Shown piece by piece: positions 40,042-40,787 of a stretch of 64,000 nt of DNA (its first letter is position 1; the number at the start of each line of letters is the position of its first letter). Position numbers and translations under genes: made by a program. Source of the stretch: an uncultured Myxococcales bacterium (GTDB taxonomy: Bacteria; Myxococcota_A; UBA9042; CAIXZC01); the NCBI GenBank assembly GCA_903895725.1, contig CAITUV010000043.1, positions 11,298 to 75,297 of the forward strand, written 5' to 3'. The notes under the pieces are model-generated. The model ran no database searches. It had not been told where the DNA came from and was given only the letters and a program-made list of their open reading frames with translations.

Positions 40042-40491
40042 TCATCCTGAACGCTCCGGCCTTCCAGCCTCCGAAACCACCACCGCCTCCCTGCCGGGAG
40101 TGAAGGACTTCGGCCTCTGCCCCACCTTGGCCTTGGCATCAGCCTCCCTGCCGGGAGTGAAGGACTTCGGCCTCTGCCCCACCTTGGCTTTGGCATCAGC
40201 GCCACTCGAACAATCGGCAAGATCTTCCCAGTTCGGATTTGCACTCTCCACCAGTGCGATCTTCTTGGACCGGCGCCACCCCTTGAGTTGCTTCTCCCGT
40301 GCGATGGCATCGAGGATCCGTTCGAAAGGTTCGAAGTAGACGAGCCGATCGACCGCGTAGCAGGCGGTGAACCCGGCATTCGACCTGCCTTTGTGTTCGG
40401 CGATGCGCCTCGAGAGCGAGTTCGTGACTCCGACGTAGAGGACTCGGGTTCGGCTCGCTGTGATGTACACCCAGTAGCGTCTCATGGTCAT
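40042..40491 (-). CDS. GIY-YIG nuclease-family small protein (YhbQ-like), with a C-terminal extension read through a repeat element
   Basis: GIY-YIG core YWVYITASRTRVLYVGVTNSLSRRIAEH ... NPNWEDL; residues after about codon 100 are translated from the 57-bp tandem repeat (ADAKAKVGQRPKSFTPGRE x2), so the native stop is probably near 40190. Confidence 0.65.
   Translation of the reverse strand: MTMRRYWVYITASRTRVLYVGVTNSLSRRIAEHKGRSNAGFTACYAVDRLVYFEPFERILDAIAREKQLKGWRRSKKIALVESANPNWEDLADCSSGADAKAKVGQRPKSFTPGREADAKAKVGQRPKSFTPGREAVVVSEAGRPERSG
40084..40197. repeat. 57-bp tandem direct repeat x2
   Basis: Copies 40084..40140 and 40141..40197 differ at 1 position; contain the core GAAGGACTTCGGCC, the reverse complement of the core in the 107-bp repeat at 40574..40787. 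Confidence 0.85.
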
Positions 40492-40573
40492 CTCCGGCGT
40501 TGTTGGTTGTGTGAGCGTCCTCGGGGCCTGTTATCGTCACGAGCGGGCGAAACGCGCGGAGGAAACGTTGTGG

Positions 40574-40787
40574 GCCGAGGTCCTTCCGCCGCCTCCAGGA
40601 GGGCACAGTCGGGGGAGAAGGCCGTGCGTCGGGGGCGTCAGGATGACGTGCCGAGCATGGGGGGTGGGGGAGGGGAGGGGGCCGAGGTCCTTCCGCCGCC
40701 TCCAGGAGGGCACAGCCGGGGGAGAAGGCCGTGCGTCGGGGGCGTCAGGATGACGTGCCGAGCATGGGGGGTGGGGGAGGGGAGGGG
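40574..40787. repeat. 107-bp tandem direct repeat x2 spanning the 3' end and stop codon of the deiminase gene
   Basis: Copies 40574..40680 and 40681..40787 differ at 1 position; contain GGCCGAGGTCCTTC plus a G-rich tract; each copy carries an in-frame stop for the minus-strand reading (40638 and 40745). Confidence 0.85.

Follow-up and report, generated by a model that had tools for sequence, protein, structure and literature searches.

A probable ssn cassette, with a GIY-YIG nuclease gene between inverted Ssn-related motifs, in an uncultured high-GC bacterium

The repeats that bracket a small GIY-YIG gene in the 64-kb stretch of DNA analyzed here (the window) are very probably the flanking motifs of an ssn cassette, in which a single-domain nuclease gene of the Ssn family lies between Ssn-related motifs (SRMs) in inverted orientation. 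The locus adds a new example to the known Ssn/SRM system and is not a new kind of element; it can confidently be annotated as the gene of an Ssn nuclease together with its cognate (predicted) hairpin repeats, instead of as unexplained repeats and odd-tailed proteins. A cassette with terminal inverted repeats had been one of the readings proposed in the initial annotation, and it proved apt: an Ssn gene sits between inverted hairpin motifs, and the same arrangement is present at most homologous loci and in Neisseria.

What is known of the family comes from one paper, published in 2025. The Neisseria meningitidis enzyme, SsnA, has 94 aa and a lone GIY-YIG domain (CDD cd10448; Chenal et al., Nat Commun 2025, PMC11893778), with catalytic residues Y6, Y17, and E64; it binds the NTS repeat CGTCATTCCCGCGMAVGCGGGAATCYRG solely as single-stranded DNA, cuts a few nucleotides upstream, and does not bind RNA (PMC11893778). 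The GTC that precedes the NTS palindrome matters for cleavage and the C that follows it for binding, and most SsnA homologues are flanked by related hairpin motifs, the SRMs, for which a degenerate pattern was published, HGTCWYN(0-2)YYVSBRHN(0-5)WNVSBRGN(0-2)RNCYNB (PMC11893778). The NTS-ssnA-NTS layout was likened by its authors to an insertion sequence, and an analogy to REP/BIME elements is also theirs (PMC11893778). Searching the literature for the motif sequence, and for Ssn papers published since, brought up no additional reports.

The window gene lies on the minus strand in an ORF spanning 40042-40491. We place its start at the ATG at 40485 (gene coordinates 40042-40485), 6 nt after a GGAG, in agreement with the 147-aa product called on nine contigs; an alternative ATG at 40491 directly abuts the GGAG. 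The conserved part of the protein, encoded at approximately 40210-40485, is a single domain of ~92 residues, and Pfam reports GIY-YIG at residues 6-77 (E=7e-13) with no second domain. Residues 6-89 match the SsnA orthologue of Neisseria gonorrhoeae at 45.9% identity (tblastn, E=1e-13; 43% in a multiple alignment); seven exact NTS copies surround the gonococcal ORF, and the numbering of its residues agrees with that of the published Y6/Y17/E64 mutants (PMC11893778). Y7, Y17, G19, R27, H31, and E64 of the window protein, which include the catalytic Tyr/Tyr/Glu, are invariant in a 12-sequence alignment. It is from the 46% identity to the SsnA orthologue, the catalytic residues, and the flanking units together that we assign this as an ssn gene with Ssn-related motifs. 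NCBIfam and PADLOC gave no match for the protein, and the PDB search returned only a weak match to UPF0213 (1zg2, E=0.002) and no Ssn structure.

Other class assignments were considered and set aside. A homing endonuclease of the I-TevI type is not indicated, as there is no second domain and the context is chromosomal, between housekeeping-type genes, rather than within an intron or phage. Membership in the REP/RAYT (REPIN) class was rejected because the flanked gene encodes a GIY-YIG protein and not an HUH/Y1 (IS200/IS605-like) transposase. The locus also falls outside the definition of an insertion sequence or MITE, for although inverted arms are present, there is neither a target-site duplication nor a transposase domain; inspection of the sequences revealed no direct repeat at the outer edges of the element.

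The two tandem repeats described around the gene in the initial annotation are real, as is the core that they share in opposite orientation. Tandem Repeats Finder reports a 57-bp repeat at 40085-40200 (2.0 copies, 98% matches) and a 107-bp repeat at 40572-40794 (2.1 copies, 99% matches), and a separate repeat search recovers both, with copies in register at 40085-40141 and 40142-40198, and at 40572-40678 and 40679-40785. The two 57-bp copies differ by a single substitution (C at 40132, T at 40189), as do the two 107-bp copies (T at 40609, C at 40716), and a 9-bp direct repeat, GGGCCGAGG, bounds the 107-bp copies at 40572-40580, 40679-40687, and 40786-40794. The repeat region is GC-rich and of low complexity. 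The 14-nt core, GGCCGARGTCCTTC, occurs twice on the minus strand to the left of the gene (40102-40115 and 40159-40172) and twice on the plus strand to its right (40573-40586 and 40680-40693). Beyond these four exact copies, the 64 kb contain only one further match, with one mismatch, at 21699; shuffled sequence yields 0.05 matches per shuffle, and none of 100 shuffles reached five matches.

The core is one end of a larger, bipartite repeat unit, which is not 14 nt but ~75 nt long, with a 12-nt extension in some copies. We refer to the end that contains the core as box B; the other end, box A (GTCATCCTGA), was overlooked in the initial annotation. Box A occupies 40041-40050 (plus strand), with its complement at 40638-40647 and 40745-40754, so that it forms a perfect 10-nt inverted repeat around the gene. 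The full arms extend over 40041-40115 (plus strand) and 40573-40647 (minus strand), the latter repeated at 40680-40754 (minus strand); both left and right arms begin GTCATCCTGA, and 65 of 83 aligned positions are identical between them. The left unit, downstream of the gene and designated L-type (40041-40115, plus strand), consists of box A GTCATCCTGAACG at 40041-40053, a 46-nt insert, and box B GTGAAGGACTTCGGCC at 40100-40115. The proximal right unit, upstream of the gene and designated R-type (40573-40659, minus strand), has on the minus strand box A GTCATCCTGACGC at 40647-40635, an insert also of 46 nt, and box B GGAAGGACCTCGGCC ending at 40573, and is preceded by the 12-nt extension CATGCTCGGCAC at 40659-40648. 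The distal right unit, likewise R-type (40680-40766, minus strand), is the second copy generated by the 107-bp duplication. The CATGCTCGGCAC extension is present as an exact match at both right-hand units and is lacking from the left arm.

These three units were identified by pattern scanning and with a covariance model, R1, built from 29 units of other genomes only. When 128 kb were searched (both strands, filters off), R1 ranked the window units first to third: the left unit is the best match (40037-40115, 16.5 bits, E=0.014), followed by the proximal right unit (40573-40651, E=0.07) and the distal right unit (40680-40758, E=0.1). The window units are degenerate representatives, scoring 13.6-16.5 bits at E=0.014-0.1, with E-values that are only roughly calibrated. 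A fourth match, at 58165-58196 (E=0.4), was treated as due to chance because it falls within long ORFs and is without the box-A TGAG, and neither the R1 scan nor the core search gave any other convincing copy of the unit in the 64-kb window. As single-stranded DNA, the window units show no folding stability beyond that of shuffled sequence (z = -0.1 to -0.4); the structure is therefore unsupported in the window copies themselves, and its support comes from covariation in other genomes.

To describe the unit more broadly, we used 80 loci from one-genome-per-species contigs that encode GIY-YIG relatives 55-68% identical to the window protein. The core, with mismatches, is found beside the gene in unrelated genomes, and three loci read in detail show the bipartite unit, in which box A (GTCATCCTGAGCG) is followed by a variable hairpin and box B ((A)GTCGAAGGACCYCGG), a form that can also be written GTCATCCTGAGCG-hairpin-GTCGAAGGAYC. 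A scan by box-A and box-B similarity only found units in 62 of 83 sources, and a refined scan found 196 distinct units in the 80 loci, in Acidobacteriota, Gemmatimonadota, 'delta proteobacteria', Verrucomicrobiota, Chloroflexota, Cyanobacteria, and other phyla. The association with the gene is close: a unit lies within 300 bp of it at 78 of 81 loci, and unit density is 3.7/kb near the gene, 0.18/kb in the remaining flanks, and 0.009/kb in shuffled sequence. A sense unit upstream together with an inverted unit downstream is seen at 44 of the 81 loci, and one locus (L011) has perfect 40-nt terminal inverted repeats. The initial annotation had counted a core unique to this locus against its own reading; the core is indeed unique within the window, and it recurs next to homologous genes in other genomes, so this does not weigh against the repeats being elements.

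Covariation provides the evidence that the unit is structured. Without pairing having been required in the search, the outer stem is fully paired in 27 of 60 candidates, whereas 1000 shuffles gave 8 on average and never more than 14, and there are at least nine outer-stem types, ATCCT/AGGAT and at least eight other complementary versions. In the 56-60-nt class (29 units), compensatory changes occur at 11 of the 15 pairs predicted for the inner hairpin. The units keep the GTC-AT(stem)...(stem)AT/C-C frame of the Neisseria NTS. The published SRM pattern, which as a positive control finds the NTS and the N. gonorrhoeae copies, has no match in the window and only two stray matches in the 80 loci, with no unit matched. 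The SRM label therefore rests on the GTC-AT...AT-C frame together with association with the gene, and this Ssn clade carries a distinct repeat variant. The GTCATCCTGAGCG-hairpin-GTCGAAGGAYC form is thus a widespread variant missed by the published pattern, and it may account for part of the Ssn genes reported as lacking repeats.

As the initial annotation had noted, the ORFs on both sides read into the repeats, and the stop-codon context is duplicated. The ssn ORF (40042-40491, minus strand) ends in ...ADAKAKVGQRPKSFTPGREADAKAKVGQRPKSFTPGREAVVVSEAGRPERSG*, its last 58 codons (40045-40209) being read-through into the downstream repeat, and its stop codon (40042-40044, minus strand) is a TGA in the reverse complement of the left box A (TCAGGATGAC). 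The deiminase ORF upstream of it (40745-42838, minus strand; Pfam PAD_porph, Porphyromonas-type) ends in ...RSRPSAPSPPPPPMLGTSS*, with a nonconserved tail at 40745-40790 (minus strand) that finishes at the TGA at 40747-40745 of the distal box A GTCATCCTGA; the second copy of this stop context is at 40638-40647. Because ssn stops at the TGA of TCAGGATGAC and the deiminase at the TGA of GTCATCCTGA, box A supplies a stop codon on both strands. Among 81 homologues the conserved domain ends at NPxWxDL and is followed by tails of 2-168 residues; only one of these is longer than the 58-residue tail in the window, which is unlike all the rest, and 11 of the 81 homologues stop at the same position of their own downstream unit. 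The possibility that orthologues share the C-terminal extensions as conserved protein sequence is not borne out, given that the tails differ among the 81 homologues, and the ORF tails are, as judged from these comparisons, by-products of the repeat rather than conserved protein. Both ORFs would have lost, or would lack, a stop codon of their own and so continue as far as the TGA present in box A on either strand.

We read the tandem duplications as secondary slippage or unequal-exchange events and not as the defining structure of the element, because the copies differ by one substitution each, a one-copy allele exists for the 107-bp repeat, and arrays of units occur at other loci. The 57-bp duplication (40085-40198) contains the left unit's box B and a portion of its insert without box A, giving a second left box B at 40157-40172; it is present in every assembly that has the gene, and the identical 147-aa product is encoded on nine contigs from several samples. 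The 107-bp duplication (40572-40794, 2.1 copies) takes in a complete R-type unit and another 32 nt. In other samples, two MEGAHIT contigs (L001 and L002) that otherwise match the window at 100% identity over ~6.4 kb have one copy of the 107-bp unit and thus lack the distal right unit, so this duplication is either polymorphic or assembly dependent. Elsewhere, tandem arrays with units and a period of at least 25 bp are found at 12 of the 80 other loci, reaching 161 bp x 11.3. Particular cases include three box-B units with a 60-bp period behind one L-type box A (L104), which parallels the 57-bp duplication; a partly duplicated R-type arm (L116); and four downstream unit copies in tandem (L082). 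A plausible order of events is that both duplications arose after the cassette was gained, through slippage or unequal exchange in the repeat-rich arms, the 107-bp duplication occurring between the 9-bp direct repeats.

Comparison with orthologous loci that lack the repeats, which the initial annotation had suggested, shows an unchanged gene order, and no cassette, in a sister lineage. An 89%-identical orthologue of the neighboring 217-aa protein is encoded on three contigs (L083-L085), in the order UvrA-TGT-218aa-deiminase-giant gene, as in the window, with 158 bp between the convergent genes. By blastn against these contigs, homology stops at 40023, two bases beyond the 217-aa gene's stop codon and ~17 nt short of box A, and resumes at 40839 inside the deiminase gene. 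The segment with no sister counterpart (40024-40838) thus comprises the cassette and a diverged 3' stretch of the deiminase gene, and opposite it the sister holds ~211 bp with no ssn gene and no unit. The sister deiminase ends ...GLALALGRRRIRV* right after its membrane anchor, and the window version runs on into the repeat. An ssn gene is likewise missing from this site in two more distant relatives, and no unit or ssn gene was found within 5 kb at the loci of the sister and these two relatives. The sister site has a 26-bp tandem repeat of its own; the boundaries relative to the sister are not clean, no clean empty site could be reconstructed, and no target-site duplication was seen. Gain of the cassette in the window lineage, between the 217-aa gene and the deiminase gene, appears more parsimonious than deletion in the sister, and this is the direction of the event that we infer.

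The same arms are also found without the gene. A metagenome scan for window-type box A and box B 36-56 nt apart returned 28 stretches, and approximately nine contigs, all but one from the related samples Ga0194127 and Ga0194126, have a unit 84-93% identical to the right arm of the window over 78-112 nt. Seven of these also have a unit 76-79% identical to the left arm, and two contigs (L104 and L119) have an L-type arm alone; in total, related arms are present on ~11 separate metagenome contigs, seven of them as mapped doublets. No ssn gene was found on the metagenome contigs carrying L-type or R-type arms. On the seven contigs, the covariance model places the two arm types as inverted doublets 43-229 nt apart, with a spacer made of one to seven copies of a 31-bp module and an inverted repeat that reaches 12 nt beyond GTCAT (the CATGCTCGGCAC extension), flanked by further short modules in inverted arrays, a BIME-like mosaic. 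The doublet layout is that of the window cassette minus the gene, and the gene-less doublets look like MITEs or REPINs. The suggestion in the initial annotation that the repeats are REP- or MITE-like therefore holds in relatives, in which there are at least seven inverted doublets without ssn, and it accords with the REP/BIME analogy already drawn for the family (PMC11893778).

In the proposed organization of the unit, the 5' box A (GTC-ATCCT-GA...) would pair with the 3' box B (...GA-AGGAY-C) around a variable inner hairpin or insert, with the GTCAT ends facing away from the gene. If it behaves like the Neisseria and Wolbachia enzymes, the protein would bind the unit only as folded single-stranded DNA and would cut a few nucleotides 5' of GTCAT, which predicts cuts to the left of 40041 (plus strand) and to the right of 40647 and 40754 (minus strand). 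The biological role could, again by analogy, be control of recombination or of incoming single-stranded DNA as in Neisseria, selfish spread, or both. Systems of this type would offer new (predicted) enzyme/site pairs for single-stranded DNA tools.

A broader reading of the locus, which concerns its role rather than its identity and is compatible with its being an ssn cassette, is that the cassette is an autonomous mobile element, with Ssn acting as a transposase or nickase on the outward hairpin ends and the doublets as nonautonomous derivatives. We regard this as possible but rather doubtful. The arms are terminal and inverted, identical at 65 of 83 positions; the cassette is present in one lineage and absent from its sister at the same intergenic site; at least seven gene-less doublets, which differ in their flanking context, combine these two arm types; homologues of 55-68% identity are found in many phyla and also on large plasmids; and an IS-like architecture had already been pointed out (PMC11893778). 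However, neither a target-site duplication nor a clean empty site was found, the inverted layout is unlike that of IS200/IS605, since predicted cuts would fall on opposite strands, and the 64 kb hold a single cassette and no dispersed units. Moreover, 34 of 35 plasmid records bearing homologues are typed as nonmobilizable and several are really chromosomes, and the role demonstrated in Neisseria is restriction of transforming single-stranded DNA, not transposition. The more specific proposal that the cassette and the gene-less L/R doublets form an autonomous/nonautonomous mobile pair, with a minimal GIY-YIG single-stranded DNA nuclease as the mobility enzyme and a bipartite hairpin as the end, is more tentative still, and we consider it unlikely as it stands. 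If it were true, the pair would be functionally parallel to IS200/IS605-RAYT/REPIN and evolutionarily unrelated to it, and its hairpin end would lie outside the published SRM consensus and be common to a large clade of soil and freshwater bacteria. The filled-versus-empty sister comparison, the gene-less doublets, and the variation in unit copy number add to the material on the family and make the mobility of NTS-ssn-NTS units more directly testable.

The remaining explanations dispute that the units belong with the gene as DNA elements. That the units function as RNA within the ssn transcript, for instance in termination, attenuation, or processing, draws on their covarying structure and on the position of the downstream unit, at a terminator position between convergent genes; nonetheless, the upstream and downstream copies are inverted, such that an mRNA would carry opposite strands of the motif, doublets exist without any gene, Rfam had no match in searches of nine loci at E up to 1, and SsnA does not bind RNA (PMC11893778), all of which make this reading very unlikely. 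Hardly more credible, and if anything slightly less so, is the idea that these are ordinary REP/BIME elements mobilized by a RAYT encoded elsewhere and close to the GIY-YIG gene by coincidence. Hairpin-forming units in inverted doublets and in mosaic arrays with short modules would fit such elements, but the association with ssn at 78 of 81 loci across phyla, with an ~20-fold enrichment beside the gene, does not, nor does the fact that the units have the GTCAT...ATC frame in common with the NTS, the repeat bound and cut by SsnA (PMC11893778). Finally, the absence of the 107-bp duplication from two otherwise identical assemblies and the GC-rich, low-complexity nature of the region might point to a chance match of the core and to assembly artifacts in the tandem repeats. 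This has a negligible probability and is refuted for the core and the 57-bp repeat, as the core is conserved beside homologous genes in unrelated genomes and is seen exactly four times against 0.05 expected, and the 57-bp duplication recurs on nine contigs from several samples.

As an ssn cassette, the locus shares with the Ssn/NTS system of Neisseria a single-domain GIY-YIG protein of ~92 conserved residues (43-46% identity, catalytic Tyr/Tyr/Glu), a gene with inverted hairpin repeats to either side, each opening with GTCAT and closing with a stem and a C, and repeats that are clustered and sometimes arrayed. It differs in that the units are outside the published SRM pattern, the outer stem is only 4-5 bp (TCCT/AGGA) and is followed by the conserved loops GAGCG and GTCGA, and the inner hairpin is variable (0-54 nt), represented in the window by an insert of 46 nt that folds poorly. 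Nothing in the 64-kb window and related contigs suggests copies in the hundreds, and the host is an uncultured high-GC bacterium with no known competence. With the REP/REPIN-RAYT systems and BIMEs of enterobacteria and pseudomonads, the locus has in common a single-copy gene between inverted hairpin repeats, with gene-less inverted doublets elsewhere and mosaic arrays of variable copy number, whereas the enzyme is a GIY-YIG protein rather than an HUH/Y1 transposase and the repeat sequences are unrelated. Terminal inverted repeats, presence or absence between close relatives, and gene-less derivatives that keep both ends are likewise features of insertion sequences and MITEs, but here the ends are structured hairpins, there is no recognized transposase family, and no target-site duplication was detected. 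Another parallel is with Rickettsia palindromic elements and Neisseria Correia elements, which are short palindromic repeats at or inside gene ends and alter the encoded termini. In contrast to those elements, the altered termini here are read-through tails that extend to a TGA in the repeat and not in-frame insertions, and the repeats are tied to a specific nuclease gene.

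Inverted doublets of L-type and R-type arms, the repeat units that form the left and right arms in the window, also occur without a gene on metagenome contigs L102 to L120 (JGI contigs with the prefixes Ga0194127_ and Ga0194126_), as at 7443-7643 of L111 and 4369-4569 of L103. The spacer of these doublets contains one to seven copies of a 31-bp module (GGAGGAACTGCCGCTGGACCTGCGGCCGTGC), and a 24-bp module (GGATGTGCCGTGGGTGCGGGCAA) lies in inverted arrays on their flanks; together, the doublets, spacer modules, and flanking arrays are a BIME-like mosaic. On L104 (993-1190), three 60-bp units containing box B come after an L-type arm, with only one box A in front of them, and on L116 (14402-14575) an R-type arm is partly duplicated; both cases parallel the 57-bp duplication in the window. 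Repeats also accompany ssn genes in other genomes: at L010 (2268-3979), repeat units separate three ssn homologues, all within 1.7 kb, and at L009 (1161-2976), a 161-bp unit is reiterated 11.3 times at 99% identity immediately upstream of an ssn gene.

In the sister lineage, a 26-bp unit (CACGGGCACGTGAYGCGGAYAAGC) repeated five times in tandem occupies the cassette site (L083, 5690-5815); the unit bears a loose likeness to the outer module of the mosaics on the metagenome contigs. Elsewhere in this locus, at the intergenic junction next to the 3' end of uvrA (L083, 747-795), a segment of 36 to 49 nt shares 92 to 97% identity with segments on three metagenome contigs (L103, L104, and L119), and these matches point to a further short dispersed repeat. 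A 24-mer of the window (29062-29085) recurs as seven 100%-identical copies with a period of 54 bp on metagenome contig L111 (715-1978).

Other tandem repeats are present in the window. Two near-perfect arrays, a 9-bp unit in 10 copies (ATAGGACGC; 34358-34447) and a 21-bp unit made of GGCTCAC heptamers in 5.2 copies (34513-34621), lie about 540 to 800 bp past the uvrA 3' end. The Ssn-related unit is absent from three further repeats, of 81 bp in 2.6 copies (8602-8815), 31 bp in 3.5 copies (57359-57467), and 27 bp in two perfect copies (61748-61800).

Two 2.17-Mb records of Neisseria gonorrhoeae (NZ_CP119142.1 and NZ_CP119140.1) are evidently chromosomes, despite being listed in a plasmid collection. 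They are useful for comparison because ssnA is present on both together with its NTS repeats; the open reading frame of this gene on these records has no in-frame ATG near its start.

The C-terminal region of the window deiminase (40745-42838) is long and Cys-rich; after it come GCGC, a hydrophobic segment, and RSR, an arrangement that makes it a candidate for a MYXO-CTERM-type sorting signal. The adjoining open reading frame (42884-57283) encodes 4,799 aa built from Cys-rich repeats of about 25 residues with DxCT/NPCT motifs, and it is conserved beside the deiminase in relatives too (4,742 and 5,014 aa).
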